Counted from the first letter of the stretch, positions 14,408 to 49,867 are shown. The stretch: 64,000 nt of DNA from Terriglobia bacterium (GCA_965198225.1 CBDAOY010000005.1:256001-320000), one strand, 5' to 3'. Numbers and translations are program-made. Notes: generated by a model not told the origin, from the sequence alone.

Positions 14408-14522
14408 TAGCCACGGATTGCACGGATTTAGCGGATTTCTTTCGGACAACGGACCACAGTATTCTTCCTATCCGTGTAATCCGTGAAATCCGTGGCGGTC
14501 TTTGTCCGAGCAATCCGTGGTT
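14408..14522. repeat. Family B palindromic repeat downstream of the split GxxExxY gene
   Basis: agccacggattgcacggatttagcggattt...atccgtgtaatccgtgaaatccgtggc plus an extra arm aatccgtggtt; direct repeat of 15864-15943. Confidence 0.85.
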
Positions 14523-15817
14523 TACCGGATCAATCTTTTCCACGTCAGGCTCTCCTCACCGAAATTGACCACGAGTCCGATCGGCACGGCCCGGGCTTTC
14601 ATGTAGGAAAGGGCCTGCGCAATATGCACATTGTGAATCCCGCTGACCGCCTTTAGTTCGACGATTACCTCGTCATTGACGATGACATCCAGCCGGTGTT
14701 TGCCGACTAGCCCGGGGCGTTTTCGGGTTAACACTAATGAGCATGAATGTTTTACGAATCATTCGGCGTGTGGAGGAGATCACACAGGAGCAGTCGGTTG
14801 TCGCATCGAGCCGGAACTGCCGCGTCATAAGGGCGGGGCAACGTCAGTCTTTCGAACCTGCGGACGGTCTTGAACGCCATTTTCAGACGGTATGGTGGCT
14901 GAGCAGGGCTGCAAGTGGCGCGGTCTGCCCAAGCGCTTTGGCAACTGTCCGCACCACCATCTACACCCGGATGAACCTCATACAAAGCTGGTGATGAAGA
15001 ACGGGGTGCTCGACGCCGTCTTCGAAAAACTCCAGCGCGAGCAACTGGTGCGCATCCGGGTGGAAGCCGTTTCGATGGACTCGACCATTGTGAAGGTCCG
15101 CATCCCGACGGCACAGGAGCGTTAAAAAAAACGGTCCGGTGGCAAGCGATCGGCAACCATCCCGCGGAGGATGGACCACCAAGATTCATCGGATGGTTGC
15201 CGCGAATGCTCGAACGGCGATAACGTTTGCACCTCTCGCCCGGACCTCCTAACCAAGCGCACGACGCCCCGCAGGGCCGCGAGCTGCTCGCCGGCCTGGG
15301 GCCGTTGCCCGCGCCGCTGCCGCTGCCTGATGGACCGTGCCTACCAGGACGACCAGACCCGCCAATTGGCTCTGGATTTTGGGTGGATTCCCGTCGTGCC
15401 GCAGCCAAGCGCAACCGCTTGGAGCCACCGGGAATACGACCGCGTTCTCTACCGCCGCAGGAACGAAGTCGAGAGGCGTGGTCTTCCGCCGACTCAAAGG
15501 TTTCCGGCGTCTCACGCGGTTTGGACAAAGTCCGTGAAATTATTCTCATAAGGGCCGCTTCGATAAACTCGACGTCATGTTCCTCGCCTTCCTTCACTTC
15601 GCTCTCATCGTCGAGGCACTACGTTAGTGTTAACACGCCCTAGCTGGCCTTTATAAGCGACTCGTACTTCCGATTCGGTGGTTCTCGATAGGCCTCGAAG
15701 GCCCAGTTCGTGAAGGAAGGCTTTCCTGTAGATGGTTTCCAGGAAGCCGGGGCCCAACACACGATGGACTTCCATGGCGGCGCCGATAATGGTGCGGGTG
15801 AGTCTCTCCGATCGCAT
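14522..15817 (-). pseudogene. GxxExxY protein gene interrupted by an IS5-family element
   Basis: The 5' half MRSERLTRTIIGAAMEVHRVLGPGFLETIY...YKGQL and the 3' half VGKHRLDVIVNDEVIVELKAV...NFGEESL join in frame across CTAG. Confidence 0.9.
14707..15643 (+). mobile_element. IS5-family (IS427-like) insertion sequence, heavily frameshifted
   Basis: Fragments VAEQGCKWRGLPKRFGN, MDSTIVKV, AHDAPQGRELL and YRRRNEVER; A-run at about 15124. Right IR is ttagtgttaacacgccc, left IR is the degenerate ggcgt...gttaacactaa; CTAG at both ends. Confidence 0.85.
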
Positions 15818-15840
15818 GATCTCGCCGGAGCATTTCGCGT

Positions 15841-15968
15841 GCCACGGATTGCACGGAGGAATCTAGCCACGGATTACACGGATTTAGCGGATTTCTTTCG
15901 GACAGCAGGCCCCAGTATTCTTCCTATCCGTGAAATCCGTGGCTTGTTCTATGTGTGTAATCCGTGGA
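15841..15968. repeat. Family B palindromic repeat upstream of the split GxxExxY gene
   Basis: gccacggattgcacggag...agccacggattacacggatttagcggattt...atccgtgaaatccgtggc...taatccgtggat, ending next to the lysS stop. Confidence 0.85.
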
Positions 15969-17478: not shown

Positions 17479-17562
17479 TAACCACGGAGGCACAGAGGCA
17501 CGGAACGAATTTTGTGTCCGAGCTGAAATCAAAAACTCCGTGTCTCCGCGCCTCCGTGGTTA
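17479..17562. repeat. Family A GxxExxY-type empty inverted repeat
   Basis: taaccacggaggcacagaggcacgga...ctccgtgtctccgcgcctccgtggtta; the right end overlaps the nusB TAA. Confidence 0.9.
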
Positions 17563-17976
17563 TGTCTTCTTCTCTTCAATTTCCTTCCGGATACTATCCA
17601 GAATCCCGTTGACGAAGTTGGGAGACTGCTCGGCGCCGTAGCGGCGGGCGATTTCGATCGCTTCGTTGATGACGACGGTGCTCGGGGTCTCTTCGTCGTA
17701 GAGCAGTTCCTGGGTCGCCAGCCTCAGGATGTTGCGGTCGACGGTGTCCATCCGATCGAGCCGCCAGTTTTCGGCGTGGCTCTCGATTACCGGATCGATC
17801 TTCTCAATAGCCCCAACGGTCCGCTCCAGCAACCGGTCGGCAAACTCCCGGGCGTCGGGAGACGCCTCGTGAACCTCCCAGAAGTTCACGGAAATCTCGT
17901 CAAACGGGTCGCGCGTCAGATCCCACTGGAACAGCATCTGGAGCGCGCACTCCCTTCCTTGCCGTCGAATACCCAT
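17560..17976 (-). CDS. nusB: Transcription antitermination factor NusB
   Basis: RRQGRECALQMLFQ, VVINEAIEIA and FVNGILD motifs. Confidence 0.95.
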   Translation of the reverse strand: MGIRRQGRECALQMLFQWDLTRDPFDEISVNFWEVHEASPDAREFADRLLERTVGAIEKIDPVIESHAENWRLDRMDTVDRNILRLATQELLYDEETPSTVVINEAIEIARRYGAEQSPNFVNGILDSIRKEIEEKKT

Positions 17977-17989
17977 CGAATATCGATTG

Positions 17990-18481
17990 TCAAAGATCGC
18001 GAAGCAGTCGGACCATTTCTATGGCAGCTATCGCCGCGTCGAAACCGCGGTTGCCGGCATCCCCTCCAGAACGGGCTGCGGCTTGCTCGTAGTTCTCGGT
18101 CGTCAGGACACCGAACGTAACAGGAATGTTCGCATCGAGCGAAACACGCAATAAACCCTCCGTGGCAGCGCGGCCGACATGCTCAAAATGCGGCGTCTCT
18201 CCGCGAATCACGCATCCGAGCGCGATGACCGCATCGAAGGCGCCGTCAGTGGTCAGGCGTTTAGCTGCCACCGGAAGTTCGAAGGAGCCGGGTACGCGAA
18301 CCACGCGCACTTCGTGGGGCGGCGTGCCGGTCTTCTCGAGCGCTTCAAGAGCCCCTTCGAGCAGGCGATCGACGATGTTCGCGTTGAACCGGCTCGCGAC
18401 GATCGCAAACCCGAGCCCCGAAGAGTCGAGGTTGTCGGGAATCTTCGGCGACTCTTTACTCTCCTTTGAAGTTCGCTCCAC
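17990..18481 (-). CDS. ribH: 6,7-dimethyl-8-ribityllumazine synthase
   Basis: SRFN, VPGSFELP and GCVIRGETPHF motifs; upstream of nusB. Confidence 0.95.
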   Translation of the reverse strand: MERTSKESKESPKIPDNLDSSGLGFAIVASRFNANIVDRLLEGALEALEKTGTPPHEVRVVRVPGSFELPVAAKRLTTDGAFDAVIALGCVIRGETPHFEHVGRAATEGLLRVSLDANIPVTFGVLTTENYEQAAARSGGDAGNRGFDAAIAAIEMVRLLRDL

Positions 18482-19235
18482 GTTTCTCCAGGAACGCTCG
18501 AGTCCCTTCCTTCATGTCCTCGGTCGCGCAACATAGACCGAACAGGGTCGCCTCGAGGAACTGTCCTTCCGCTTGAGTCATCTCGACACCCCGATTAACG
18601 GCTTCTAGACAGAACTGTACCGCCAGAGGCGCGTTGGCGATGATCTTTCTTGCCAGAGCCTCGGCAGCGCTTATGAGCTCGGCCTGCGGGACCACTTGGT
18701 TGGCAAGACCGATCCGGCTGGCCTCTTCGGCGGTGACCATCTCGCCGGTGATCAGGATCTGCATCGCGCGGCCTTTTCCGACAAGCCGCGGCAGCCGCTG
18801 CGTGCCCCCGTAGCCCGGGATGATGCCCAGCTTCACCTCAGGTTGCCCGAACACGGCATTGTCGGAGGCGATCCGGAACGAGCACGCCATGGCCAGCTCA
18901 CAACCTCCACCCAGGGCATAACCGTTGACCGCAGCGATCACGGGTTTGCCGAGTTCCTCGATGAAGTTGAACGTGGCCTGGCCTGACAACGCCCATTCTT
19001 TACCTGGCACGGGAGTCTGGACGGCCAGCTCGTTGATGTCGGCGCCGCTGACGAACGCCTTTTCCCCGCCCCCGGTAAGGATGACCACGCGGACTGCAGC
19101 GTCATTCTTCGCTTCCCCGAAAGCCTGCCGCAACTCGGCCACCGTCTGCGCGTTGAGCGCATTCCGCACCTTGGGCCTGTCAATGGTTACAAAGGCTATA
19201 CTGTCCCGGACTTCACACACTAAATTTTCATACAT
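18456..19235 (-). CDS. Enoyl-CoA hydratase (crotonase)
   Basis: AFVSGADI, GYALGGGCELA and GQPEVKLGIIPGYGGTQRL motifs; start at MYENLV. Confidence 0.92.
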   Translation of the reverse strand: MYENLVCEVRDSIAFVTIDRPKVRNALNAQTVAELRQAFGEAKNDAAVRVVILTGGGEKAFVSGADINELAVQTPVPGKEWALSGQATFNFIEELGKPVIAAVNGYALGGGCELAMACSFRIASDNAVFGQPEVKLGIIPGYGGTQRLPRLVGKGRAMQILITGEMVTAEEASRIGLANQVVPQAELISAAEALARKIIANAPLAVQFCLEAVNRGVEMTQAEGQFLEATLFGLCCATEDMKEGTRAFLEKRGANFKGE

Positions 19236-19263
19236 GGCTCTAACCAGTAGGATGAAGAAGATA

Positions 19264-19338
19264 TAACCACGGAGGCGCGGAGACACGGAGTTGATTAGAC
19301 CTCATGGGTTTCTCCGTGCCTCTGTGCCTCCGTGGTTA
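19264..19338. repeat. Family A empty inverted repeat
   Basis: taaccacggaggcgcggagacacggag...ctccgtgcctctgtgcctccgtggtta. Confidence 0.9.
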
Positions 19339-19346
19339 GCAAATTC

Positions 19347-20225
19347 CTAATACAACGGCTTTGGGTTGGCCGGGTCGCTGTGATCGTAGAAGCCGCGGCC
19401 GGTTTTGCGGCCGTGGTGGCCGGCCAGGACCATTCGCTTCAGCAAAGGAGGCGGCGCGAACCGGCGCTCACGGAACTCGTCGAACATGATGTTGGCGATG
19501 TAGTACGTCGTATCCAGGCCGACGAAATCCAACAGCGTAAAGGGTCCCATGGGATAGCCGCAGCCGAGCTTCATCCCGTTGTCGATGTCGGAAACTGAGC
19601 CGATACCCTCCTCCAGGCCCCGGACCGCGTCGAGCAGGTACGGCACGAGCAGCCGGTTCACGATGAAGCCCGACCGGTCGGTCGTCCGAATCGGAACCTT
19701 GCCCAGACTCTTGCCGAAGTCCATGGCCTCGTCCATGACGCCGGGGGCCGTCGTAATGGTGCCGACGACCTCGACCAGTTTCATGATCGGAACCGGGTTA
19801 AAGAAGTGAAGGCCGATAAAGCGGTCCACCCGCCTGGTCGCCGTCATCATTTCGGTGATGACCAGCGAGGACGTGTTGCTGGCGAAGATGGCTCCGTCCT
19901 TCACGGCTTCGTCCAACTCCTTGAAGAGCTCCCGCTTCAAGTCGAGGTTCTCGATGACGGCCTCGATGACGACATCGCAATCGGCCAGATCGCCGACGTT
20001 TGTGGTTCCGCTCAGCCGCCCCATGATCTCGGCCTTCTGCTCCCCGGTAATCTTTTCTTTCTTGAGCAGCCGCGAAAGCGACTTGTCGATCGATGCCATC
20101 CCCTTGTCGAGAAACTCGTCGGCCACTTCGCGGACGACGGTTTCGAACCCTGCCGCGGCCGCCGTCTGCGCGATGCCGGATCCCATCAGGCCACAGCCCA
20201 GCACTCCAACCTTCTTGATAGCCAT
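19347..20225 (-). CDS. 3-hydroxybutyryl-CoA dehydrogenase
   Basis: GCGLMGSGIAQ, SNTSSL, HFFNPVP and PMGP motifs. Confidence 0.92.
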   Translation of the reverse strand: MAIKKVGVLGCGLMGSGIAQTAAAAGFETVVREVADEFLDKGMASIDKSLSRLLKKEKITGEQKAEIMGRLSGTTNVGDLADCDVVIEAVIENLDLKRELFKELDEAVKDGAIFASNTSSLVITEMMTATRRVDRFIGLHFFNPVPIMKLVEVVGTITTAPGVMDEAMDFGKSLGKVPIRTTDRSGFIVNRLLVPYLLDAVRGLEEGIGSVSDIDNGMKLGCGYPMGPFTLLDFVGLDTTYYIANIMFDEFRERRFAPPPLLKRMVLAGHHGRKTGRGFYDHSDPANPKPLY

Positions 20226-20254
20226 TAATTAATGCCTCCCGAAACTTACGCCAG

Positions 20255-20324
20255 GTCTAGGGGCGGTCTATGACCGCACATTGTCCGAACCGAAACGACG
20301 TGCGCTCATAGAGCGCACCTACAC
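20255..20324. repeat. GTAG-type REP doublet (family C, copy 3)
   Basis: gtctaggggcggtctatgaccgcac...gtgcgctcatagagcgcacctacac. Confidence 0.8.
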
Positions 20325-20330
20325 CCCATA

Positions 20331-21503
20331 TCAGCTCAGTGCTTCGACAATAATTGCGATGCCTTGCCCACCGCCGATGCATGCGGTCGCAAGACCGTAT
20401 CGTTCGTTCCGTCGTCGGAGCTCATAGAGGACCGTCATCGTCAGCCGCGTACCGGTCGCGCCGAGCGGGTGTCCCAGGGCGATGGCACCGCCGTTGACGT
20501 TGACCTTGTCACGATCGAGACCGAGCTCCTTTTCCACGGCCAGATACTGTCCGGCGAAAGCCTCGTTCACTTCGATGAGGTCGATGTCGGAGAGCTGCAG
20601 TCCCGCCCGCTCGAGGGCTATCTTCGTAGCGGGAACGGGGCCGATGCCCATGATCTCAGGCGGTACACCAGCGATCCCCCAACTGACGATTCGACCCAGG
20701 GCGTTGCCGTTTGCCTTCTCGGCCGTGGTCAGGACAACGGCCGCGCCGCCATCGACGATGCCGCTGGCGTTGCCGGCCGTCACGAACCCGTCCTCGGCAA
20801 AGGCGGGCCGCAGCTTGGCCAGAGCTTCCATCGTGGTGTCCGGACGCATGTGGTCATCCTGCTCGACTATCTTGACGCCCTTGCGGCTCTTGAGCTCCAC
20901 CGGTGTGATTTCGTCTGCGAAACGCCCAGCCTGCCACGCCGCTGCAGCCGCCCTCTGACTGCGCAATGCGAACTCATCCTGCTGTTCGCGACTGATGTTG
21001 TGCTTGTTCGCCAGGTTATTCGCCGTCCCGGCCATGTAGCAGCCACAGTAGGTGTCCATCAGCGCGACCATCAACGAGTCCTCCATCTGAGCCTGACCCA
21101 GTTTCAGGCCCCACCGGGCGCCGCGGACAACGTGCGGCGCCTGGCTCATCGACTCGATGCCGCCCGCCAGAACGTGTTCGGCCTCCCCGAGTTCGATCAA
21201 CTGCGCGCCGGTGACGATGGCCTGAATCCCCGAACCGCACAAGCGGTTGAGGGTCAGAGCGGGCGTCTCGATCGGTAGGCCCGCCTTCAAGGCGACATGA
21301 CGTGCGCCATAGATCGCGTCGCCGCTGGTCTGCAGCGCGTTGCCAAAAACGGCATGATCGAAGTCCTCGGCGGCCACCCCCGACTGCTCGATCGCAGCCC
21401 GAGACGCGATGGCTCCCAACTCAAGTGCACTCAGGTCCCGGAGCGCTCCACCGTACTCCCCCATCGGGGTTCTTTTGCCGGCAACGATGACAATGTCTTT
21501 CAT
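20331..21503 (-). CDS. Acetyl-CoA C-acyltransferase (thiolase)
   Basis: NRLCGSG, NEAFA, GHPLGATG and CIGGGQG motifs. Start at MKDIVIV with a GGAGG RBS. Confidence 0.93.
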   Translation of the reverse strand: MKDIVIVAGKRTPMGEYGGALRDLSALELGAIASRAAIEQSGVAAEDFDHAVFGNALQTSGDAIYGARHVALKAGLPIETPALTLNRLCGSGIQAIVTGAQLIELGEAEHVLAGGIESMSQAPHVVRGARWGLKLGQAQMEDSLMVALMDTYCGCYMAGTANNLANKHNISREQQDEFALRSQRAAAAAWQAGRFADEITPVELKSRKGVKIVEQDDHMRPDTTMEALAKLRPAFAEDGFVTAGNASGIVDGGAAVVLTTAEKANGNALGRIVSWGIAGVPPEIMGIGPVPATKIALERAGLQLSDIDLIEVNEAFAGQYLAVEKELGLDRDKVNVNGGAIALGHPLGATGTRLTMTVLYELRRRNERYGLATACIGGGQGIAIIVEALS

Positions 21504-21555
21504 GTACGACCTCCAAAACTGACAATTATCGCACAATTCAGAGAGAGGAGGAACT

Positions 21556-21739
21556 TGACGACGGAGGCTCGGAGACACGGACATCTTTGTCTTTCGCCGA
21601 GCGTAGAGGCCCGTGAGAGAACCAATGTGAGGGGGACACGGCCTGGCCCTGTCCCCGGGTTTTCGCCACGCAGAAAAGTCGGTGAGCGATGCCACCTGCC
21701 CATCGCAAGATCTCCGTGCCTCTGTGCCTCCGTGGTTCA
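21556..21739. repeat. Family A inverted repeat enclosing a family D hairpin
   Basis: acggaggctcggagacacgga...[gggggacacggcctggccctgtccccggg]...ctccgtgcctctgtgcctccgtggtt. Confidence 0.8.
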
Positions 21740-21788
21740 TCTTCTTCGCCTGCCAGAGCGGAGTCAGACCACATGCTAGACTGGCGCA

Positions 21789-22736
21789 ATGATTCTGGTG
21801 ACAGGCGGGGCGGGCTTTATCGGTTCTCACCTCATCGACAGTCTGCTTGACCGAGGAGAGGAAATCGTCTGCGTCGACGATTTCAATGATTTCTACTCGC
21901 CGGACATCAAACGGGCGAACATCAGCATCCATCTGGAATCGAACCGGTATCGCTTGGTTGAAGCCGATATTCGGGATCAGAAGGCCCTCGCCAGCGTCTT
22001 CGAGCGTCACGGGATTCACAAGATCGTCCACCTGGCGGCACGAGCCGGTGTCCGCCCCTCGCTTGTCGAGCCGCTCCTCTACGAAGATGTCAATGTCCGT
22101 GGAACCCTGTATCTGCTCGAGTTGGCACGTGTGCACGAGGTCGACCAATTTGTTTTCGCCTCATCTTCTTCGGTTTACGGGGCAAACAAGAAGGTCCCTT
22201 TCAGTGAAGACGACCGGATCGATCGAACCATCTCTCCATACGCTGCGACAAAGTACGGCGGAGAGCTCTTCTGCCACACTTATCACCACCTCTACGGCAT
22301 ACCGACTACCTGCTTGCGATTCTTCACGGTTTACGGGCCGCGGCAGCGTCCGGAGATGGCGATCCACAAATTTACACGTCTGCTGTTCGAATCGAAACCG
22401 ATCCCCATGTTCGGAGACGGGGAAAGCGCGCGCGATTACACCTACATCGACGACATCCTGGCGGGACTTCTCTCGGCGATAGACCACCCTTTCGACTTCG
22501 AGGTGATCAACCTGGGAGAATCGAATACGACAACGCTCCGGGAATTGATCGATGCGCTCGGCCGTCTCTCGGGCCGGTCGGTCGATGTCGAACGCCTTCC
22601 CAACCAACCCGGCGACGTCGAAATCAACTACGCCGACGTCTCCAAGGCGAAACGCCTGCTCGACTACCACCCGACCACGTCAATCGAAGACGGCCTGTCC
22701 AATTTCCTCGAATGGTTCGAGAAAAGCCTGGCCTGA
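21789..22736 (+). CDS. NAD-dependent epimerase (UDP-glucuronate 4-epimerase-like)
   Basis: GGAGFIG, YAATK and RFFTVYGPRQRPEMA motifs. Confidence 0.88.
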   Translation: MILVTGGAGFIGSHLIDSLLDRGEEIVCVDDFNDFYSPDIKRANISIHLESNRYRLVEADIRDQKALASVFERHGIHKIVHLAARAGVRPSLVEPLLYEDVNVRGTLYLLELARVHEVDQFVFASSSSVYGANKKVPFSEDDRIDRTISPYAATKYGGELFCHTYHHLYGIPTTCLRFFTVYGPRQRPEMAIHKFTRLLFESKPIPMFGDGESARDYTYIDDILAGLLSAIDHPFDFEVINLGESNTTTLRELIDALGRLSGRSVDVERLPNQPGDVEINYADVSKAKRLLDYHPTTSIEDGLSNFLEWFEKSLA

Positions 22737-22760
22737 ACCGTTCGCAGTCGGAAAAAGGTC

Positions 22761-22842
22761 TTAACCACGGAGGCGCGGAGGCACGGAGATTGCCAAGAGA
22801 CATCGGCAACAAGACATCCCTCCTCCGTGTCTCCGTGGTCAA
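22761..22842. repeat. Family A empty inverted repeat
   Basis: ttaaccacggaggcgcggaggcacggag...ctccgtgtctccgtggtcaa. Confidence 0.85.
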
Positions 22843-22899
22843 ACCAAGTCCCCTCCGCTGTTCAGTTGAAGGGCGTATGTTAGGATTTATGTTTAGCTT

Positions 22900-24747
22900 A
22901 TGAGGGATTTTCTCGACACGCTCCAGGAGCGCGTACTCGTTTGCGACGGGGCGATGGGCACGATGCTCTACGGCAAGGGAGTGTTCATAAATCGTTGTTT
23001 TGACGAGCTCAACATCTCCTCGCCGGAAATGGTCAAGGAGGTTCATTCCGAATACATCGCGGCCGGTGCCGACATCATCGAAACGAACACGTTCGGTGCG
23101 AACCGGCACAAGTTGATGATGCACGGGCTGGGCGCGCAGCTGGAAGAAATCAACCGCCAGGGAGCGCGAATCGCGAAGGGAGCCGCGGGCGACGACGCCT
23201 TCGTCGCCGGCGCGATCGGTCCGCTCGACATCCGTATCGAACCCTGGGGCAAGACATCGATCGACGACGCCCGGGCGGCTTTTGCCGAGCAGGCTCGCGC
23301 TCTGCGGGAAGGCGGAGTCGACCTGTTCATCCTCGAAACCTTTTCGGACCTAAACGAAGTTCATGCCGCGATCCGAGGTGTTCGTGACGCATCCGACCTT
23401 CCTATCGTCGCCCAGATGACGATCGAGGAGGACGGGAACAGCCTCGAGGGAACGCCGCCGGAGGTGTTCGGCCGAAGGCTCGATGAGTGGGGCGCCGATG
23501 TCGTCGGCCTCAACTGCAGCGTCGGCCCTCAGGCGATGCTGGATGGGCTGGAAAGACTGGCCCTGATCACGACCAGGAAGCTCTCCGTGCTGCCGAACGC
23601 GGGACGTCCGCGAAACGTCGAAGGCCGTAACCTCTATCTCTGTTCGCCGGAATACATGGCTTCCTATGCCCGCAAGTTTGTCCGATACGGCGCGGGTATC
23701 GTCGGCGGATGCTGCGGGACGACGCCGCAGCACATCCAGGCCCTCCGCGCCGCCGTTCGTTCGGAAGAGCCCGGCGTCCGACACCGTATCGTGTCTGCCG
23801 CCCCCGCCCCCGCACCCCATCCGGAGACGGTTCCGTTCGAAGAAAAATCGGAAATCGCCAGGAAGCTGGCTGCCGATGAGTTCGTGTACTTTGTCGAGCT
23901 GATGCCGCCGCACGGCCACGAGGCGGACCAGGCGATCATCGATGCGAAGAGGCTCCGCTGCGCCGGAATCGACGCCATCACGATCGTCGAGGCGGCGCTA
24001 TCCAGTGCCCGGATGAGCGCGGTGTCGCTGGCGGTCCTGCTGAAGAGGGCCGCCGAGATTCCCACCTGCGTCCGGTACACTTGCTGCGATCACAACCTGA
24101 TGGGTATGCAGGCGGATCTGTTGGGAGCCTATGCCCTGGGCCTGAGAAACCTGCTTCTTGTCACCGGCGACCCTCCCCGGCTCGGGGACTACCCCGACGC
24201 GACGGCGGTCTTCGACGTCGACTCCATTGGGCTCACGAACATGGTCACACACCTGAACAGGGGGATCGACGTCGGCGGCAAGGAGATGGGACGGCCCACC
24301 GGTTTCCTGGTCGGCGTGATGGCAAACCCCGGCGCCGTCGATATCGATCGTGAGATGAAGCGGCTCTACTACAAGATCGAAGCCGGTGCGGAGTTCTTGG
24401 TCACGCCGCCGGTTTTCGATAGCACGCTGCTCGATCGGTTCGTCCGGAAGATCGAGCAGTACCGGAAGCCGGTCATCGCGGGGCTGATCCCGCTGGCCAG
24501 CTACAAGAACGCGGAGTTCCTAAATAACGAGGTCCCGGGATCGTCGATTCCCGATCCGATCCTGGACCGAATGCGCAACGCGGCAACGCCCGAAGCTGCC
24601 AAGGCGGAAGGCGTGCGGATCGCCCAGGAAACACTGCAGGCAATCCATGGAATGGTTCACGGGGTGCAGATCTCTCCTCCGTTGAACGACTACGACCGTG
24701 TCATCGAGATCCTGTCCGTCGTGGGATCAAAAGGAGCAGCATCGTGA
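22900..24747 (+). CDS. Bifunctional homocysteine S-methyltransferase / methylenetetrahydrofolate reductase (YitJ-like)
   Basis: DGAMGT, GLNC and GGCCGTTP, followed by an MTHFR domain with TGDPP. Confidence 0.9.
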   Translation: MRDFLDTLQERVLVCDGAMGTMLYGKGVFINRCFDELNISSPEMVKEVHSEYIAAGADIIETNTFGANRHKLMMHGLGAQLEEINRQGARIAKGAAGDDAFVAGAIGPLDIRIEPWGKTSIDDARAAFAEQARALREGGVDLFILETFSDLNEVHAAIRGVRDASDLPIVAQMTIEEDGNSLEGTPPEVFGRRLDEWGADVVGLNCSVGPQAMLDGLERLALITTRKLSVLPNAGRPRNVEGRNLYLCSPEYMASYARKFVRYGAGIVGGCCGTTPQHIQALRAAVRSEEPGVRHRIVSAAPAPAPHPETVPFEEKSEIARKLAADEFVYFVELMPPHGHEADQAIIDAKRLRCAGIDAITIVEAALSSARMSAVSLAVLLKRAAEIPTCVRYTCCDHNLMGMQADLLGAYALGLRNLLLVTGDPPRLGDYPDATAVFDVDSIGLTNMVTHLNRGIDVGGKEMGRPTGFLVGVMANPGAVDIDREMKRLYYKIEAGAEFLVTPPVFDSTLLDRFVRKIEQYRKPVIAGLIPLASYKNAEFLNNEVPGSSIPDPILDRMRNAATPEAAKAEGVRIAQETLQAIHGMVHGVQISPPLNDYDRVIEILSVVGSKGAAS

Positions 24748-25349
24748 GAACACTCGTCATCATCAGCCTACTCGTATTCGTGCCCCTGGCCGTCGCTCAG
24801 GATCTCGAAGATCTGGATCCCGGACTCTACGCCCACTTTGATACGACCGCGGGTGAATTCACCGTCGAACTGTTTCAGGAGGAAGCACCGAAGACGGTCG
24901 GGAACTTCGTCAACCTGGCCACGGGCCGACAGGACTGGAGACACCCCGTGACCGGCGAGGTCCGCAAGGATACCCCCTACTACGACGGCATTATTTTCCA
25001 TCGCGTCATCGCAGATTTCATGATCCAGACGGGAGACCCGAGCGGTACCGGCGCCGGAGGCCCGGGCTACACGATCCCCGACGAATTTGCCGGGGGACTC
25101 CGGCACAGCCGGGAAGGTATCGTTTCGATGGCCAACAAGAACGTTGCGGACAGCGGCAGCGCCCAGTTCTTCATCACGCTCGCAGCTACTCGTTTCCTGG
25201 ACGGAAAGCATGCCATCTTCGGACGGGTCGCCAAGGGAATCAATATCATCCGAAGTATCGGTAGAGTTCGAGTCGGCGACCGGGACAAGCCTATCAGGGA
25301 CGTCACGATCAACAAGGTGACGATACTGCGGAAGCAGGAGAAGGAGTGA
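24744..25349 (+). CDS. Cyclophilin-type peptidyl-prolyl isomerase, exported
   Basis: FHRVIADFMIQTGDP, QFFITL and LDGKHAIFG motifs; signal peptide. Confidence 0.92.
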   Translation: MRTLVIISLLVFVPLAVAQDLEDLDPGLYAHFDTTAGEFTVELFQEEAPKTVGNFVNLATGRQDWRHPVTGEVRKDTPYYDGIIFHRVIADFMIQTGDPSGTGAGGPGYTIPDEFAGGLRHSREGIVSMANKNVADSGSAQFFITLAATRFLDGKHAIFGRVAKGINIIRSIGRVRVGDRDKPIRDVTINKVTILRKQEKE

Positions 25350-25368
25350 GAAAGGCTCGGGCGCCTCG

Positions 25369-25418
25369 AACCCGGGGACAGGGCAAGCCCTGTCCCCCTC
25401 ACAGTGGCTCTCTCGCGG
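25369..25418. repeat. Family D hairpin repeat
   Basis: aacccggggacagggcaagccctgtccccctcacagtggctctctcgcgg is close to the reverse complement of 21611-21662. Confidence 0.75.
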
Positions 25419-25448
25419 TACGCTGGTGCGGAGCGGGGACAGCTCGTT

Positions 25449-26855
25449 CTAGCGGGAAGTTTCCCGGGCGATTACTTCGACGAATTCCTGAGCACTGTAG
25501 CCGGATGAGACGACCGGCACCCCCAGTTCCTCTTCGACCTCGGTAATCGTCAGATCATCCAGGAACAGGTATTCCTCTCCGATCATTGATTCGGCGGGAA
25601 GGACGACGAAGTCGCCGTGCACCTTGCCCTTCAAGGCCCGAACGAAATCACTTCCTGTCAGCAGGCCGGCGACATTAACGCCGGAACCCCAGAACCGGTT
25701 TTCGACGGCTACCGTCTTCAGATCGAGGCGGAACCTGGCCACGCACTCCTCCAGGTGTCGGTGGAACAAACGGCCGGTGCATATCGTGCCCATTCGTGAT
25801 GCGGCGGGCGGCATGAACTTCCGGATCGCTCGATCGAACTCATCGAGAAACGTCCGGACCATGCCGACGCCGTTCTCGATCTGCGGAAACTCGGCGTAGT
25901 GACTCTCGGGTGGCAGGACCTGCCCGGCCAGTATGTAGAACTCGTCTCCGAGAAAAACAAAGGGTGTGTCCCACTTGTCTTCGTAGTGGCGTTGGATAGG
26001 CTCGACGTGCGCGATCGTAGCTCGTGCGTAGTCTGGAGTAACCGAATCGAGTTTGGGCAGGTTCTCGCGATGATCCGTCAGCCCGAGCGGTACGACGGCG
26101 ACGGACTGAACCCCCGGATGGCGCCCGGCGAGGTCCTCGATCGTCTGTTCCAGGTGCGCCCCATCGTTGAGGCCGGGACATAGAACGACCTGGCAGTGCA
26201 GCATGATGCCCGCCTCCGTCAGCCGGTCCAGCTTGGTATCGAGGCCGTCATAGGTCGTGTTGCCGAGCATGGCGGTACGCAGCTCCGGTTCGGTGGCATG
26301 CACGGAAATATAGAGGGGTGAGAGCCGTTGCTCGATGATCCGTTCGAGCTCGTCTTCGGCAACATTGGTCAGCGTAAGATAGTTTCCGAAAAGGAACGAC
26401 AGGCGGTAGTCCTCATCCTTGATCCGAAGCGAGCGCCGGGTGTTGCCGGGATTCTGATGAACGAAGCAGAATACGCAGTCGTTGTCGCAGACGAGAGGCT
26501 CGATCGGTTCGAACTCGACCCCGAAATCTTCCCATTCCCGGCGGACGAACCCGAGAGTCCGATCCTGCGTCCGGAGCGACATCCGCTCGCCGACGCCGGC
26601 GACCCCGAACTGAAAGTCAACCACATCCAGGAGCGGGTCGCCGTTCAGTTCGAGCACCTCGTCTCCAGGTTTCAGTCCGATACGTTCGGCCAGAGATCGT
26701 CGATCTACAGACAGAACCCGTAGCGGTTGGCCGGCCCTTTTGCGTGCAGGCGGGGCGTGACGGTACTCATGCTGCGCGCTGATCTTTCGCGCGACGTCCT
26801 GGTCGTTCGTGCGACGGACGTAGGCGCCGGTGGAGAACTGCTTCTTCCGGGTCAT
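25449..26855 (-). CDS. PDZ + DUF512 putative radical SAM protein
   Basis: CDNDCVFCF, KDEDYRLSF and QIENGVGM motifs; start MTRKKQ overlaps the pgsA-like stop. Confidence 0.85.
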   Translation of the reverse strand: MTRKKQFSTGAYVRRTNDQDVARKISAQHEYRHAPPARKRAGQPLRVLSVDRRSLAERIGLKPGDEVLELNGDPLLDVVDFQFGVAGVGERMSLRTQDRTLGFVRREWEDFGVEFEPIEPLVCDNDCVFCFVHQNPGNTRRSLRIKDEDYRLSFLFGNYLTLTNVAEDELERIIEQRLSPLYISVHATEPELRTAMLGNTTYDGLDTKLDRLTEAGIMLHCQVVLCPGLNDGAHLEQTIEDLAGRHPGVQSVAVVPLGLTDHRENLPKLDSVTPDYARATIAHVEPIQRHYEDKWDTPFVFLGDEFYILAGQVLPPESHYAEFPQIENGVGMVRTFLDEFDRAIRKFMPPAASRMGTICTGRLFHRHLEECVARFRLDLKTVAVENRFWGSGVNVAGLLTGSDFVRALKGKVHGDFVVLPAESMIGEEYLFLDDLTITEVEEELGVPVVSSGYSAQEFVEVIARETSR

Positions 26856-27439
26856 CCGTTCTCGAGCAGTTTCCGGCCGATCGCAAGGTAGTTGAGGCCC
26901 GAAATCGCCGTCAGCAAGCCCGTCAGGATGAACAGGAAGTACAGTCCGGGCTCCTGCACATTCATCCAGTTGTAGGCCAGAACGACAAACACCGTCAGGA
27001 GTTGGAATGCCGTACTCGCCTTGCCGTACATTGTCGGCGGAAAGGTTCTGAAACCGTGGACAAGAACGAAGGCAAGGCTGCCCAACAGGATGAACACATC
27101 TCTGAAGATGACCAGCAGCAGCAGCCACAGAGGTATTGCGTTGGCAAACCCCATCTCGGGAAGCGACAGTACGACGATGGAACTGATCATCAGGAGCTTG
27201 TCCGCGATCGGATCCAGAATCGCGCCGACCGATGTCTTCTGGCCGAAACGCCGCGCGATGATTCCATCGAGGCCATCGGTCAGACCCGCTGCCAGGAATG
27301 TCAGCAACGCCCAACCGAGCCGGTTGTAGACGAGCAGAATGATAAACACAGGCACGAAGACGATCCGCAGGATCGTCAGCTGGTTCGCCAGCGTGAGGAT
27401 GTTCGGCTCGTAATGCTCGACTGTCTTGCTGGGTGACAT
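26852..27439 (-). CDS. CDP-alcohol phosphatidyltransferase (PgsA-like)
   Basis: DGLDGIIARR...GAILDPIADK motif. Confidence 0.9.
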   Translation of the reverse strand: MSPSKTVEHYEPNILTLANQLTILRIVFVPVFIILLVYNRLGWALLTFLAAGLTDGLDGIIARRFGQKTSVGAILDPIADKLLMISSIVVLSLPEMGFANAIPLWLLLLVIFRDVFILLGSLAFVLVHGFRTFPPTMYGKASTAFQLLTVFVVLAYNWMNVQEPGLYFLFILTGLLTAISGLNYLAIGRKLLENG

Positions 27440-27613
27440 TTTCTAGTTCCTGTTATTCCACCGGGCTCTCATCTACGCGGATTGCTCTGATTCTTTTGAG
27501 AATGAACTACCCGCGCACTACCTCGCCTTGTCAAGAGAGTGTCCCCGTAAACAAAAGGACGCAGGGACCAGGGTCCGTGCGTCCTTCAATCGTTCGATCC
27601 GGGCGACGTTCGG

Positions 27614-28042
27614 TTATTGCACAGTCACCGGAACCGCGGTATCGACCACCTGGCGGGAGCAGAAGCCGTCCGCCTTGGAGCAGAAGAAGTAGACGAGTGT
27701 CGCGGGAATCTCGTAGGCTCCCGCCTCCGCGGCCTCGACGACGATATCGAATGTCGGCACGTCGACGTAGTACTCGTCCGTCGATTTCGGGTCTTCCGAA
27801 GATGAAACCAGACTGGTGTCGGTCAGCGTCAGACCCTCGATCCCTTCGAGTTTCAGTTGAATCGGAGGAATGCGGTTGATGACGTACCCTTTCTTGACGT
27901 CGAAGGAAACCTTGACCTCTCCCGTCTCGCCGGCCGGAATGGACTTCTCGGAAAAAGCGGGCTCCATGACCTGGGGCAACGCGGCGCCCGGACCGGAGAG
28001 CTGCGCCAGAAGAAGGATGATTCCAACCGCAAAGTTCACCAT
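27614..28042 (-). CDS. Exported DsbD N-terminal-like domain protein
   Basis: Signal peptide, Ig-like beta pattern and YFFCSKADGFC. Confidence 0.6.
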   Translation of the reverse strand: MVNFAVGIILLLAQLSGPGAALPQVMEPAFSEKSIPAGETGEVKVSFDVKKGYVINRIPPIQLKLEGIEGLTLTDTSLVSSSEDPKSTDEYYVDVPTFDIVVEAAEAGAYEIPATLVYFFCSKADGFCSRQVVDTAVPVTVQ

Positions 28043-28118
28043 AATAGTCTCCTTTGATGCGACGCACTGACACCTCGTGCGGGAAGCTATCGGGGTGCAA
28101 GTCGTTCAGAATTATAGC

Positions 28119-29210
28119 ATGAGAATTACTTCGGTCGTGGGCGCCCGGCCCAACTTCATGAAGATCGCGCCGATTGCGGCCCTCCTGGCAGATGTCGGGG
28201 ACGTCCGGCACTACCTGGTCCATACCGGACAGCACTACGACCAGGGTATGTCGGACGTTTTCTTTCGAGATTTGTCAATTCCGGTGCCCGATATCGACTT
28301 GGGAGTCGGCTCGGCCTCCCACGCCGTCCAGACGGCCCGGATCATGGAGGAGTTCGAAAAGGTCTGCCTCTCGGAGCGGCCGGACGTGATCATAGTCGTT
28401 GGCGACGTGAATTCGACGATGGCCTGCACGCTGGTCGCGGCAAAGCTCCTGATCCCGGTGGCCCACGTGGAAGCCGGCCTGCGGAGCTTCGACCGGACGA
28501 TGCCCGAGGAGATCAATCGCCTCGTCACCGATGCGCTCGCCGAAATCCTGTTCACAACGAGTCGCGACGCCGACGAGAACCTCAAACGGGAAGGTGTCCC
28601 GGAAAAAAAGATCCACTTCGTCGGGAACGTCATGATCGACACCCTGCTGCAACACCGCGAGAAGGCCACGTCGCTCGATGTCGCCACGGGCCTCGGGCTG
28701 GACGGTGGCGGTTACGCCGTGATGACCCTTCACCGACCCTCCAACGTGGACGACCCCATCGTGCTCCAGGGCATCCTTGAATCGGTGCAGGAAATCTCGA
28801 AGTCAATGCCCGTCGTCTTTCCAATCCATCCCCGTACATCGGGGCGCATCCGGGAGTTCGAACTGGATCCTCTGGTCCACGGCGCCGTCCGTATCTGTGA
28901 TCCCCTCGGGTACCTGGAGTTCCTCAACCTGATGTCTGAAGCACGGTTCGTGCTCACCGATTCCGGCGGCCTTCAAGAAGAGACGACAATCCTGGGCATT
29001 CCCTGCTTGACCATCCGCGAAAACACCGAGCGACCTGTCACGATCACCGAAGGGAGCAACCTGCTGGTCGGAACCGACCCGGAGCGGATCCTGGAGGCAG
29101 CTCGAAAGATCCTTGCCGGCCATTGGAAGGAATCCAGGGTGCCGGAGTACTGGGATGGGAAGGCGGCCGAGAGGATCGTGAAGATCCTGACTGCAACGAA
29201 ACCCGCCTGA
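28119..29210 (+). CDS. wecB: UDP-N-acetylglucosamine 2-epimerase (non-hydrolysing)
   Basis: GARPNFMK, HTGQHYD, HVEAGLRS and TDSGGLQEE motifs. Confidence 0.92.
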   Translation: MRITSVVGARPNFMKIAPIAALLADVGDVRHYLVHTGQHYDQGMSDVFFRDLSIPVPDIDLGVGSASHAVQTARIMEEFEKVCLSERPDVIIVVGDVNSTMACTLVAAKLLIPVAHVEAGLRSFDRTMPEEINRLVTDALAEILFTTSRDADENLKREGVPEKKIHFVGNVMIDTLLQHREKATSLDVATGLGLDGGGYAVMTLHRPSNVDDPIVLQGILESVQEISKSMPVVFPIHPRTSGRIREFELDPLVHGAVRICDPLGYLEFLNLMSEARFVLTDSGGLQEETTILGIPCLTIRENTERPVTITEGSNLLVGTDPERILEAARKILAGHWKESRVPEYWDGKAAERIVKILTATKPA

Positions 29211-29242
29211 ACCTGATACGCACACGAACGCATGCGGATCCG

Positions 29243-29336
29243 TTAACCACAGAGGCACGAAGGCACAGACGTTTCTGGTCTGTGTGGAAGTGTATCCCGA
29301 TACAAATCCTCCGTGCCTCGGCGCCTCCGTGGTTCA
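29243..29336. repeat. Family A empty inverted repeat
   Basis: ttaaccacagaggcacgaaggcacaga...ctccgtgcctcggcgcctccgtggtt. Confidence 0.85.
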
Positions 29337-30275: not shown

Positions 30276-30365
30276 TGCTGTCAGCGATCAGCCTTCAGCT
30301 ACTTTGGGAACGGGGCGATAGCCCCATCCGGTGGAGCCGATAGCTGAACGCTGATGGCTGATCGC
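30276..30365. repeat. Inverted 7-mer tandem repeat (family E)
   Basis: gctgtcagcgatcagccttcagct ... agccgatagctgaacgctgatggctgatcgc. Confidence 0.65.
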
Positions 30366-32473: not shown

Positions 32474-33214
32474 ATGGACGTTTTTCAACTCGAAGAGGTC
32501 ACCAAAGACCGTGGGGACGACTTCACGCTCGGACCGCTGAGCCTTCATATGTCGCCAGGAGAGATCCTCGGTGTGATGGGGCCGAACGGGGCCGGTAAAA
32601 CGACTCTGCTGAGAATGCTCTGGGGCTTCCTCCGTCCCGACGCGGGACGGATATCTGTCTTCGGTCGGTCGCCGCACCTGGAACAGGTCTGGGTTCGACT
32701 CCGAGCAGGCTATTTGTCGGAAGCTCCCGAGTTCTACGGGTGGATGACCGGCAGACGCTTCCTTTCGTTTATCGCGGGATTCTATCCAAGCTGGGATTGG
32801 AGGCGCGCCGACCGGCTGCTCGAGGACTTCGAGTTGGACGGCGGGAAGAAGGTGGGGGAACTGTCGAAGGGCAACCGGATCAAGCTCGGCCTGATCGCAG
32901 CTATCGCACACCGGCCGCAATTGCTGATTCTGGACGAACCGACATCCGGCCTGGACCCAGTCATCCGAATTGACATATTGGAGTTCTTACGCACGCTGTC
33001 GCGGGATGACGGCACCGGCGTCGTCATGTCCTCACACGTGTCGGACGATCTAGACCGCATCGCTGACTCCGTATTGATGCTGAATGGAGGACGGGTTGTC
33101 GAGTACGCTCCCGCGGCGGTCCTGTTAGACAGGTACGACAAATGCCAGCTGGAGGAAGTGTTCCTACATGCAATCGGTCGGGTTTCCACGACTCGCGCTG
33201 CACATCGCGCGTAA
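32474..33214 (+). CDS. ABC transporter ATP-binding protein (possible immunity)
   Basis: GPNGAGKTT, LSKG and LDEPTSGLDP motifs; start MDVFQL. Confidence 0.85.
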   Translation: MDVFQLEEVTKDRGDDFTLGPLSLHMSPGEILGVMGPNGAGKTTLLRMLWGFLRPDAGRISVFGRSPHLEQVWVRLRAGYLSEAPEFYGWMTGRRFLSFIAGFYPSWDWRRADRLLEDFELDGGKKVGELSKGNRIKLGLIAAIAHRPQLLILDEPTSGLDPVIRIDILEFLRTLSRDDGTGVVMSSHVSDDLDRIADSVLMLNGGRVVEYAPAAVLLDRYDKCQLEEVFLHAIGRVSTTRAAHRA

Positions 33215-33809
33215 GGACTGGGGCGAGTCCAGGAAACTGATCCTGACTCTAACCGCGGCCTTGCTCGTCCCCGCTCTACTGGTCCGTTTATTTCCAGGCC
33301 GATCCGAAGACTTCGCCAAAGGTCTGCTCGCCGGCCTGCTCGCCGGCGCCGGCTTCGGCTATGCCCAGTACTGCTTCCTCAACGAACGCCTCCGGAATAC
33401 ACTGGATCTTCTACTGAGCCTGCCGATTGAACCCCGCGACCTTGTGCTTGCCAAATACGTCTCGCTCTACTCGATGGTTCTCTTCACGGTAAACATCCCG
33501 GCCCTCTTCATCTCCAACCTCCAACTCATCTTCATCGTCAACGCCGCTGCTCTGTCCCTGGCAACACTGTTCATGGCCACCACCGTCATCTCCGACAAAC
33601 CCTGGGCCGCCCAGATCCCGATTTATCTGCTCCTGGTTTTTATCCTCCCCTCTGAACGCCTCCTCAACCGTTACTACCCTTCCGGCCTCGACCTCTTCCG
33701 CACCCTCACATCCCACCCCCTCCTCCTCGCCACCCTGGCCCTGCTCCTGACCCCCGCCCTGATCGCTGGATCGACGTTTTTTTTCACCACGGAGGCGCGG
33801 AAGCACTGA
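33168..33809 (+). CDS. ABC-2-type membrane permease (possible immunity)
   Basis: About six TM segments and an ERLRNTLDLLLSLPIEPRDLVLAKY ABC-2 motif. Confidence 0.75.
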   Translation: MQSVGFPRLALHIARKDWGESRKLILTLTAALLVPALLVRLFPGRSEDFAKGLLAGLLAGAGFGYAQYCFLNERLRNTLDLLLSLPIEPRDLVLAKYVSLYSMVLFTVNIPALFISNLQLIFIVNAAALSLATLFMATTVISDKPWAAQIPIYLLLVFILPSERLLNRYYPSGLDLFRTLTSHPLLLATLALLLTPALIAGSTFFFTTEARKH

Positions 33810-34216
33810 GGTGAGGTTTCATCCGGTGACCCGACAGGTTATCGGTGCTGCGATCGAGGTTCACAAGGCCATGGGTTCGGGTTTGTTGGAGTCCATCTAC
33901 CAAGAATGCCTCGAAGTCGAACTACGATTAAGGCGTGTCCGTTTCGAGCGCCAGAAGACGATCCCCTTGACATACAAAGGCGTGGAGGTTGGGGCGGCGC
34001 TCAGACTGGACCTACTTGTTGGAAACACGGTCATCGTGGAGATCAAAGCGGTCGAATCGATAACACCGGTGCATGAAGCTCAGTTAGTAACCTACCTACG
34101 GCTCACGGGCTGCTCTGTGGGCCTTTTGATCAACTTCAACGTGGAGGTACTTCGGAAGGGGGTCAAACGCATGATCAACTACAGGTAGCTCCGCGCCTCT
34201 GTGCCTCCGTGGTTAA
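33784..34216 (+). mobile_element. Candidate autonomous GxxExxY element (family A arms enclosing the gene)
   Basis: Left arm caccacggaggcgcggaagcactgag abuts the GTG start; right arm ctccgcgcctctgtgcctccgtggttaa abuts the TAG stop. Confidence 0.6.
33811..34188 (+). CDS. GxxExxY protein (PD-(D/E)XK nuclease superfamily)
   Basis: IGAAIEVHKAMGSGLLESIY, RLDLLV, IVEIKAV, QLVTYL and GLLINFN motifs. Confidence 0.92.
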   Translation: MRFHPVTRQVIGAAIEVHKAMGSGLLESIYQECLEVELRLRRVRFERQKTIPLTYKGVEVGAALRLDLLVGNTVIVEIKAVESITPVHEAQLVTYLRLTGCSVGLLINFNVEVLRKGVKRMINYR

Positions 34217-34341
34217 CAAAAACTTCGTGTTCTTCGTGCCTTCGTGTTCAAAAAAATCGTCCCAACACGGACCATTTTCGAATCAGGCCAACCCATTTCA
34301 GTCAGTTGCGTTGTTGGAACCCCATTTGCCTCAATGTGGGG

Positions 34342-49849: not shown

Positions 49850-49867
49850 CCATTCTGAGGGGCCTGC

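Follow-up and report, generated by a model that had tools for sequence, protein, structure and literature searches.

Word-array hairpins share their arms with a GxxExxY nuclease-like gene in a Terriglobia bacterium and may be its non-autonomous partners

This work deals with a 64,000-nucleotide stretch of DNA from a Terriglobia bacterium (GCA_965198225.1, CBDAOY010000005.1:256001-320000; referred to here as the window) in which five short intergenic hairpins have the same arms as a cassette that encloses a gene for a GxxExxY protein, a predicted nuclease of the PD-(D/E)XK type. The window is C5:256001-320000 of a 6.41-Mb assembly with 9 contigs, which is labeled G000 in the comparisons with other genomes. 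We propose that these hairpins, the arms of which are arrays of short words, are the non-autonomous partners of the GxxExxY cassette resident in this genome, in a partnership like that of REPINs and RAYTs (REP-associated tyrosine transposases), and that the PD-(D/E)XK nuclease acts on the arms. We assign a probability of roughly 55% to this explanation, under which the nuclease would be the enzyme that mobilizes the hairpins.

The full cassette is found at 33784-34214 on the plus strand and consists of the arms of one repeat family, family A, around the sole intact GxxExxY gene (33811-34188, plus strand, 125 codons). Family-A arms are arrays of CACGGAGG-type words that follow a TAACCAC end. 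Four compact gene-less copies at 17479-17562, 19264-19338, 22761-22842, and 29243-29336 (no strand is assigned to the hairpins) are composed of TAACCAC and two to three CRCRGAGR words, a loop of ~20-40 nt, and the reverse-complement arm. The first of these is located in the gap between the nusB stop and the lysS start (dG -24.1, z -5.7), the second between the hbd stop and the enoyl-CoA hydratase start (dG -27.4, z -8.6), the third between the epimerase stop and the homocysteine methyltransferase-MTHFR start, and the fourth downstream of wecB. The remaining copy (21556-21739) is a composite element in the gap between the divergent thiolase and epimerase genes; its left arm is degenerate (3 mismatches in an 18-nt motif), its right arm is perfect, and ~120-130 nt separate the two. 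All of the copies in the window are intergenic, three of them between co-directional genes and one (the composite copy) between divergent gene starts, with the gene identities taken from NCBIfam and Pfam profile matches.

The 18-nt motif AACCACRGAGGCRCRGAG, with up to 3 mismatches, is matched 18 times in the window as compared to a mean of 0.40 and a maximum of 2 in 100 dinucleotide-preserving shuffles, none of which reached 18. When folded as single-stranded DNA the four short copies reach -21.8 to -27.4 kcal/mol (z -4.8 to -8.6), and none of 200 shuffles folded equally well. Two of the elements coincide with stop codons: nusB (17560-17976) ends at the edge of the first hairpin, where its stop codon (17560-17562) is the complement of the terminal TTA, and the ABC-2-like permease gene upstream of the cassette (33168-33809) has its stop codon inside the left arm of the cassette. 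An earlier reading of the window from its sequence alone (the sequence-only reading) had described five copies with 8-nt-period arms in housekeeping gaps, one of them on the nusB stop codon, and had assigned the same arms to the element at 33784. Each of these points was confirmed when the copies were read directly.

Across the genome, anchoring on the terminal arm gave 57 arm pairs, two of which were removed as artefacts of adjacent copies. The resulting 55 two-armed elements and 19 one-armed or degenerate copies make 74 loci for one intact gene, and the gene-less family is thus amplified, as had been claimed. The lengths between the two 26-nt arms range from 0 to 129 nt and the sole larger unit is the 430-bp cassette. 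The columns of the 26-nt arm consensus agree at 82-99% outside the R positions, and the arms hold three in-phase words in 78 of 110 cases and two in 25 of 110. The conserved end is T/AACCAC...GTGGTT/A (the slash marks the boundary), with a T before the element in 47 of 55 cases and an A after it in 36 of 55. The ends can be read as TA/ACCAC...GTGGT/TA, which is compatible with a TA target duplication or with one extra base pair of the inverted repeat, and the flanks form a weak palindrome, with purines prevailing on the left side. An arm has on average an identity of 0.804 with the complement of its partner, as compared to 0.799 for the arms of other elements. Selection on a stem would make the partners covary, so this lack of covariation indicates that the sequence of each arm is constrained rather than the pairing.

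The only family-A arm pair that encloses a gene is the one around the intact GxxExxY gene. Additionally, 19 of the 74 family-A loci fall within C5:220-451 kb, a stretch that accounts for 3.6% of the genome and surrounds the GxxExxY gene at 289.8 kb (binomial 1.2e-11). Family C, a word family with a different cargo that is discussed below, has 4 of its 119 loci in the same stretch (0.63), so the stretch is not merely rich in every repeat. In an open-frame test, 12 of 54 elements were found in open frames of at least 250 codons as compared to 386 of 500 random sites, a measure made noisy by the high G+C content of the genome; among these cases the four longest are ends of open reading frames or spurious read-through and not in-frame insertions.

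The GxxExxY protein matches TIGR04256 with 152.6 bits (cut-off 35, E 4.9e-45, positions 2-116 of 116) and PF13366 (PDDEXK_3) with 149 bits (cut-off 22, E 9.4e-44). The motif that gives the family its name is G24-E27-Y30. In 48 aligned sequences G24, E27, Y30, E37, Y55, and D67 are invariant and E77, K79, and Q91 are conserved in at least 90%, and D67, E77, and K79 form the D...ExK catalytic pattern. The AlphaFold (AF2) model has a pLDDT of 93.2 and a pTM of 0.86 and adopts the PD-(D/E)XK fold. Its best neighbors in a structural search are the BpuSI nuclease domain (VIA Z 8.1), SSO0001 Cas4 (8.1), BglII (7.5), and Hjc (6.9), with root-mean-square deviations of 2.8-3.2 over 86-104 residues. Such Z values usually reflect no more than a general fold held in common. 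A sequence search of the PDB found no solved chain that matches the protein, and Foldseek returned no match to the model at E <= 1e-3. The modeled fold and the catalytic pattern fit an active nuclease and nothing more specific.

A passage of a survey of PD-(D/E)XK proteins gives the function of PF13366 as 'Unknown' (PMC3424549), a passage of another paper uses GxxExxY merely as the label of a neighboring gene (PMC8934634), and the title and abstract of a third, on an algal-virus genome, are not about GxxExxY (PMC12085832). A literature search on GxxExxY, PF13366/PDDEXK_3, and TIGR04256/TIGR02436, with most subscription journals outside its coverage, found no paper on the biology of the family or on a repeat-plus-nuclease layout.

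TIGR04256 matches one intact gene and the two halves of a second gene in the genome. The second GxxExxY cassette is found in the window at 14505-15862 on the minus strand, with its gene halves at 14528-14707 and 15641-15802, and has short arms of a different family, family B. The gene is split by an insert of 933 bp (14708-15640) that has inverted ends and CTAG on both sides. We call this insert IS-like (insertion sequence-like) because of its ends, its CTAG flanks, and its 8 genome copies of at least 700 nt, which are 86-89% identical. The reading frames of the insert are broken, solely a sub-threshold DUF4096 match (E 0.0069) was found in it with Pfam, and the read depth over it is 300-1400 as compared to ~5-40 nearby. 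A gene-less family-B hairpin with CACGGATT words and a 9-nt period lies beside the second cassette at 14410-14497, and another lies on its other side at 15866-15943. Family-B arrays consist of CACGGATT-type words throughout the genome, where 84 arm matches were found in 38 loci, and unlike those of family A their loop is conserved. Eight of the 38 loci are within C5:220-451 kb, where the gene of this family is located at 270.5-271.8 kb (5e-5). As the second gene is bracketed by CACGGATT arms and the first by family-A arms, each GxxExxY gene of the genome lies inside the arms of its own hairpin family.

The same arrangement is found well beyond this genome. The 80 closest GxxExxY genes were taken from contigs at one genome per species and are 50-61% identical to the intact gene; they come from Chloroflexota, Acidobacteriota, Pseudomonadota, Planctomycetota, Verrucomicrobiota, Bacteroidota, and others, as well as from Methanothrix. 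At least two inward-facing CRCRRAG words within 170 nt were found on both sides of the gene in 47 of the 80 and on one side in 17 more. Control windows 820-1000 nt away gave 0 of 60 with words on both sides and 2 of 60 with words on any side. An inverted match of at least 17/20 nt across the gene was present in 53 of 78 usable loci, as compared to 12 of 78 cross-locus pairings, a control that is inflated because the loci have words in common. These comparisons of contigs show that the unit of gene plus arms is conserved across phyla.

The words also change with the protein. Among relatives of the intact gene (n=78) there are 47 loci with '...AG' words, none with '...AT' words, and 31 with neither, whereas among relatives of the N-terminal half of the split gene (n=76, from metagenome contigs, 43-63% identity) there are 15 with '...AG' words, 27 with '...AT' words, and 34 with neither. 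Fisher's test gives p 2e-12 for the association of word class and protein subfamily, a value that overstates the case since kinship is uncorrected. In these two sets of relatives, word class follows protein subfamily.

Three genomes of the same genus (G001-G003) keep the gene order of the window at ~73% nucleotide identity. G002 and G003 each have a GxxExxY cassette in the orthologous gap, which has the ABC-2-like gene on one side and the gene of the C39 ABC transporter on the other, and in each genome the arms of the cassette use the words of that genome's own gene-less hairpins. The upstream ABC-2-like open reading frame (ORF) ends inside the left cassette arm in G000, G002, and G003 despite the differing arms. 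The flanks of the G002 and G003 cassettes are 92-100% identical in 50-nt windows, whereas the cassettes themselves are 52-66% identical and the encoded proteins 56.8% identical, a value no higher than that for proteins of other phyla. From this difference the cassette appears either to have been exchanged at a fixed site or to be evolving far faster than its surroundings.

The gene-less hairpins also differ between these two genomes. Four G002 hairpin sites were checked in G003, where the flanks are 93-98% identical: two are without the hairpin, one has kept it, and one has 1662 nt between the flanks as compared to 148. At the two hairpin-free sites 18 and 50 nt separate the flanks in G003, and 261 and 257 nt in G002. 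The comparison of the two assemblies shows that hairpin-bearing elements have been gained or lost between G002 and G003. Additionally, three G002 copies have the loop and the outer flanks in common, a sign that units of this sister family have been copied as a whole.

With up to 1 mismatch allowed, the family-A motif is matched 110 times in this genome, 1-2 times in the three same-genus genomes, and 0-13 times across 39 relatives; GxxExxY genes are present in 23 of the 40 genomes. The dependence of such hairpins on a cargo gene was examined by a search for periodic hairpins in genome samples, in which seed and extension were used to find inverted repeats that are internally periodic and have arms of 20 nt or more, with a mirror-repeat control that gave 0-1 per sample. 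This search replaced two earlier word-agnostic detectors, one of which was too strict (15 hairpins) and the other insensitive (0-2 per 400-kb sample). In samples of 400 kb from genomes with GxxExxY genes, 9 hairpins were flagged in G000 (5 true word arrays), 7 in G002 (6 clear), and 4 in G035. TIGR04256 and TIGR02436 have no match in the genus g4 (G006, G016, and G022), G037, G015, or G027. The samples without GxxExxY gave 0 hairpins in G006 (400 kb), 1 in G016 (400 kb; a doubtful G+C-rich repeat), 1 in G037 (216.5 kb; doubtful), and 1 clear hairpin in G038 (400 kb), which has a broken four-helix-bundle gene. The evidence leans towards periodic hairpins being dependent on a cargo gene, within seven genomes of which two are from one genus. 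Of the refuting outcome named by the sequence-only reading, equal abundance in related genomes lacking GxxExxY genes together with fixation at orthologous positions, half is seen: site occupancy is conserved, as described below, but the words differ, the motif counts are 110 here and 0-13 in the relatives, and the GxxExxY-less samples gave 0-1 periodic hairpins each.

We can suggest how the partnership might operate. The GxxExxY protein would read the tandem 8-nt words of each arm, probably with several protomers side by side, and would cut at or near the TA/ACCAC boundary. Cutting would lead to the arms and anything between them being copied or moved, preferentially to nearby intergenic DNA. 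The arms might also be homogenized through repair from other copies. Any effects of the hairpins on transcripts would be secondary. The association contained in the term 'non-autonomous partners' that had been applied to the hairpins is supported by the local clustering, by the occurrence of gene plus arms across phyla, and by the word following the protein subfamily; the mechanism that the term implies is a matter of inference.

The loops bear on how the hairpins could have arisen. Fifty family-A loops were compared to the cassette interior and nothing beyond a 9-nt word was found (best E 0.067). Among the same 50 loops there are only 2 similar loop-loop pairs, in agreement with the description of conserved arms (now a 26-nt consensus) and non-conserved spacers. 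The gene-less hairpins are therefore, contrary to what the sequence-only reading had suggested, not internal deletions of the present cassette, and they are mostly not whole copies of one another. The other proposal of that reading, target or scar sites of the element, is a possible one. The long loop of the copy at 21556-21739 is a special case. Its length of about 130 nt had been estimated correctly, but it is not an unrelated spacer, as it belongs to a separate repeat family of ~70 nt with 108 blastn hits genome-wide. Nine copies join a family-A arm to this 108-hit repeat at the same register, and 3 of the 9, including the copy at 21556, keep the right arm. The repeat is also found at 25369-25418, has a strong GGGGACAGGG...CCCTGTCCCC stem, and has 10 hits in C5:220-451 kb. 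It is matched by no Rfam family.

Several observations weigh against a partnership between the hairpins and the nuclease. The scarcity of similar loops is not what a plain copy-and-paste element would predict. The orthologous gaps of the same-genus genomes hold word-array hairpins as well, in 4 of 4 genomes for the lysS-nusB, ech-hbd, and thiolase-upstream gaps and in 3 of 3 for the wecB-downstream gap, which is counted in three genomes since the G001 contig ends there. Insertion at random would likewise not lead one to expect this. Both of the polymorphic junctions between G002 and G003 are replacement-type differences, with no clean insertion and no target duplication. No relative close enough to supply empty sites for family A was found, and no family-A movement was seen in the contigs of 4 sequencing runs. 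These contigs, from 4 studies, bridge the five hairpins and the cassette unchanged, and among the joints listed none skips a hairpin, at a contig level at which rare variants are invisible. Against a single GxxExxY gene in each of them, G002 and G003 contain several types of arm in hundreds of copies. The CAC/CGC word states need 16 changes in 60 rows on a protein tree of 82 GxxExxY sequences that is poorly resolved (38 of 78 inner branches unresolved) and was used without a shuffled-label comparison. Finally, at least 4 further word-hairpin families with 7-nt periods are present in the genome without a GxxExxY gene, so GxxExxY is not the sole partner of such hairpins.

The occupied gaps need a closer look, as fixation at orthologous positions had been named as part of the outcome that would refute the partnership. 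The occupancy is indeed conserved, yet the words differ and match each genome's own cassette. The words in the same-genus gaps are of the GACGCARAG and ACCGCAGAGG types, the GTCCGAAG type, and the ACGCGGATT type. The word ACCGCAGAGGCGCAGAGG (up to 2 mismatches) is found 5 times in G000, 56 times in G001, 74 times in G002, and 115 times in G003, and the GACGCARAG-type word (up to 2 mismatches) 7, 114, 320, and 232 times, respectively; for the latter a reversed-pattern control is uninformative, as reversal merely yields the same word in a shifted register. In the ech-hbd gap G002 and G003 differ in the loop as well as in the arms. The unique loops, the conserved occupancy, and the further word families leave room for the ideas that the arms rather than whole elements are copied or homogenized, that existing hairpins are the preferred targets, and that other small proteins serve the other word families.

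The rival explanation that survives best is that the hairpins are homogenized in place without any transposition. The sites would be old and static, with arms overwritten by short-patch repair or gene conversion, perhaps after nuclease cuts, and with loops that remain site-specific. The unique loops (2 similar pairs among 50) would follow from this, as would the occupied gaps with other words in every covering same-genus genome (4/4 at three gaps and 3/3 at the fourth) and the finding that arms resemble their own partners no more than they resemble other arms (0.804 and 0.799). The clustering of family A around the gene, however, is unexpected for static old sites, and the near-identical G003 has no hairpin at 2 of the 4 G002 sites that were checked. 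The nine composites with an identical arm-cargo junction and the three G002 copies with a common loop indicate copying of whole units, and a change of both loop and arms at the ech-hbd gap does not suit an overwriting of the arms. We consider this explanation unlikely.

A slightly less favored rival is that the hairpins are ordinary miniature inverted-repeat transposable elements (MITEs) moved by an unrelated DDE transposase, such as a TA-targeting IS630/Tc1-like enzyme, and that the GxxExxY gene is a passenger. The elements are short, non-coding, and intergenic and have terminal inverted repeats, and the T before 47 of 55 and the A after 36 of 55 could be a TA duplication. The arms of family A and of other families also bracket unrelated cargo, namely the 108-hit repeat, a ferritin-like gene, and a four-helix-bundle gene. 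A parent element was looked for among all family-A arm pairs within 3 kb in the genome, and none encloses a transposase, the largest enclosed unit being the 430-bp cassette; the IS ends of the genome were not compared one by one, so this result only weakens the rival. In 47 of 80 relatives, drawn from many phyla, the word class is kept on either side of the gene, and the words change with the subfamily (47:0 and 15:27); neither is expected of a passenger. We regard the MITE explanation as improbable.

The weakest rival, that the hairpins are terminators, mRNA-stabilizing stem-loops, or RNase III sites kept under selection for a host function with the GxxExxY gene merely inside one of them, would account for the strong folding, for the position of all window copies between genes (three between co-directional ones), and for the hairpins in the orthologous gaps of all covering same-genus genomes, but it is made still more doubtful by the lack of a U-tract, by the copy between divergent gene starts, by partner arms that do not covary so that pairing is not the conserved feature, by species-specific words (110 arms here and 1-2 in same-genus genomes), by sites gained or lost between near-identical genomes, and by the linkage of gene and arms across phyla. 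A terminator scan called 22 sites as compared to 17.1 +/- 4.7 expected; the whole hairpins were not called and no T-run follows the arms. Terminator and promoter scans gave no enrichment. The possibility of ordinary terminators, which the sequence-only reading had allowed for as a contrary outcome, does not hold given the missing U-tract, the missing covariation, and the polymorphism of 2 of 4 sampled sister sites. An Rfam search of window positions 14000-35000 (E <= 1) gave no match at the gathering score. Two miRNA-precursor models were matched on the hairpins below threshold (30.9 bits as compared to 100, and 23.8 as compared to 73), and these matches are taken as chance.

Two of the other word families of the genome also have a gene between their arms. 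A word-agnostic scan of the genome found 57 hairpins and none in a reversed control. In family C, inverted arms of GTAGGCC words surround a four-helix-bundle gene (TIGR02436) at C8:688908-689228, and 119 loci were found by the pattern used. Inverted arms of CAGTAGT words bracket a ferritin-like gene of ~150 residues at C6:200991-201550. We tentatively raise the possibility that GxxExxY proteins are the enzymes of a widespread and undescribed class of mobile or domesticated DNA, in which a nuclease would read arrays of 7-10-nt words at both ends and would move or copy the arms together with their cargo, the word being a simple 'address' that can evolve and that corresponds to the subfamily of the protein. 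Such a system would take in thousands of orphan GxxExxY genes and the word-array hairpins found across many phyla, and might extend to the four-helix-bundle 'IVS' genes and to the repeats of cyanobacteria known as STRR sequences.

The layout resembles several known systems in part. In REPIN/REP and RAYT systems (PMC3116915, PMC3337134, bioRxiv 10.1101/2021.07.10.451892), as in this genome, the enzyme is encoded once, within copies of its own repeat, and the repeat also has many gene-less intergenic copies (tens to hundreds of palindromic copies in those systems, 1 intact gene and 74 loci here). In both cases the repeat sequence is lineage-specific and related genomes retain the gene at the same locus. 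This resemblance is functional only. The enzyme here is a 125-residue PD-(D/E)XK nuclease and not an HUH/Y1 transposase. No match to Y1_Tnp/RAYT (PF01797) was found in the genome, which is 97% complete, with a control search that was positive in 6 of 14 known genomes. The arms here are tandem 8-nt words with unrelated loops, unlike the REP palindrome that forms inverted doublets with a conserved spacer. The abstracts of the sources cited above describe RAYTs as mostly vertically inherited, whereas the GxxExxY cassette appears to have been exchanged between near-identical genomes and has its closest relatives in other phyla.

Prokaryotic MITEs are likewise short, non-coding, intergenic, and multi-copy, with terminal inverted repeats and in this case possibly a TA flank. 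They differ from the hairpins in that no parent IS with these ends was seen among arm pairs within 3 kb (the IS ends of the genome were not compared singly), the interiors here are unrelated to the gene-bearing copy and to each other, and the arms here are internally periodic. Short tandemly repeated repetitive (STRR) sequences of filamentous cyanobacteria are composed of tandem words, usually of 7 bp, that can form hairpins and are found between genes such as hupS and hupL (PMC2670836). The same passage gives their function as unknown, with suggested roles in transcript stability. The hairpins of the window are similar in that tandem short words between genes are able to form hairpins, but they are from another phylum and have other words and a period of 8 rather than 7, and a nuclease gene goes unmentioned in the STRR passage of PMC2670836. 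The GxxExxY protein has the PD-(D/E)XK fold and the D...ExK pattern in common with Cas4 (SSO0001), the BglII and BpuSI nuclease domains, and Hjc, but differs from them in having no sequence match to solved chains and no Foldseek hit at E <= 1e-3. ORF-bearing intervening sequences of 23S rRNA genes consist of a small ORF between inverted repeats that pair into a long stem. TIGR02436, a family of four-helix-bundle proteins, is the 'IVS protein' family. The TIGR02436 gene within word-array arms in this genome may be comparable in layout, but the copies here are not in rRNA genes.

The findings place GxxExxY/PDDEXK_3, a large family without an assigned function, in a concrete genomic context of word arms, ~70 gene-less copies, a word that changes with the protein, and an apparent swap of the cassette at a fixed site. 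If the nuclease does read the words, this would be a second, independent invention of the type of repeat-enzyme partnership represented by REPIN/RAYT, and a type of intergenic hairpin that is common in soil bacteria would have an explanation. The system would also offer a compact DNA-recognition code, word versus protein, open to dissection by means of oligonucleotides and a protein of 125 residues. As regards annotation, the hairpins supply stop codons (nusB and the ABC-2-like gene) and flank rearranged genes, which gene callers and synteny analyses should account for.

Other features of the window are related to these elements to varying degrees. A one-armed degenerate family-A arm was found by the motif search at ~1262-1287 on the minus strand. 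A single arm of a third word class (the complement of CACGAAG words) is located at 34215-34262 directly after the cassette at 33784-34214, and no left partner was seen for it. The epimerase gene (21789-22736) is bracketed by the composite copy and the hairpin at 22761-22842 and is missing from the same gap in G001-G003, where a thiolase gene, one hairpin, and the methyltransferase gene are found. An epimerase homologue that is 69-71% identical is present elsewhere, ~12 kb away among other repeats in G002 and G003; in G001 it lies on a different contig. The epimerase gene may have been relocated at the hairpins or may be a paralog.

Repeats of other kinds are also present in the window. A hairpin of another word family with a 7-nt period (TCAGCGA/TCAGCCT type) is found at 30281-30361 and has a 21-nt arm and a 39-nt loop. 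Another palindromic repeat family, of the GTGTAGGTGCGC... type, is represented at 20253-20330, between hbd and thiolase, and also at 3852-3918 and 9574-9647. This family has dozens of copies with ~80-88% identity in the same-genus genome G001, and the read depth there is very high. Finally, inverted-repeat elements with ends at or beside CTAG are found at 49574-49850 and 56043-56172, with arms of 32 nt and 18 nt, respectively.

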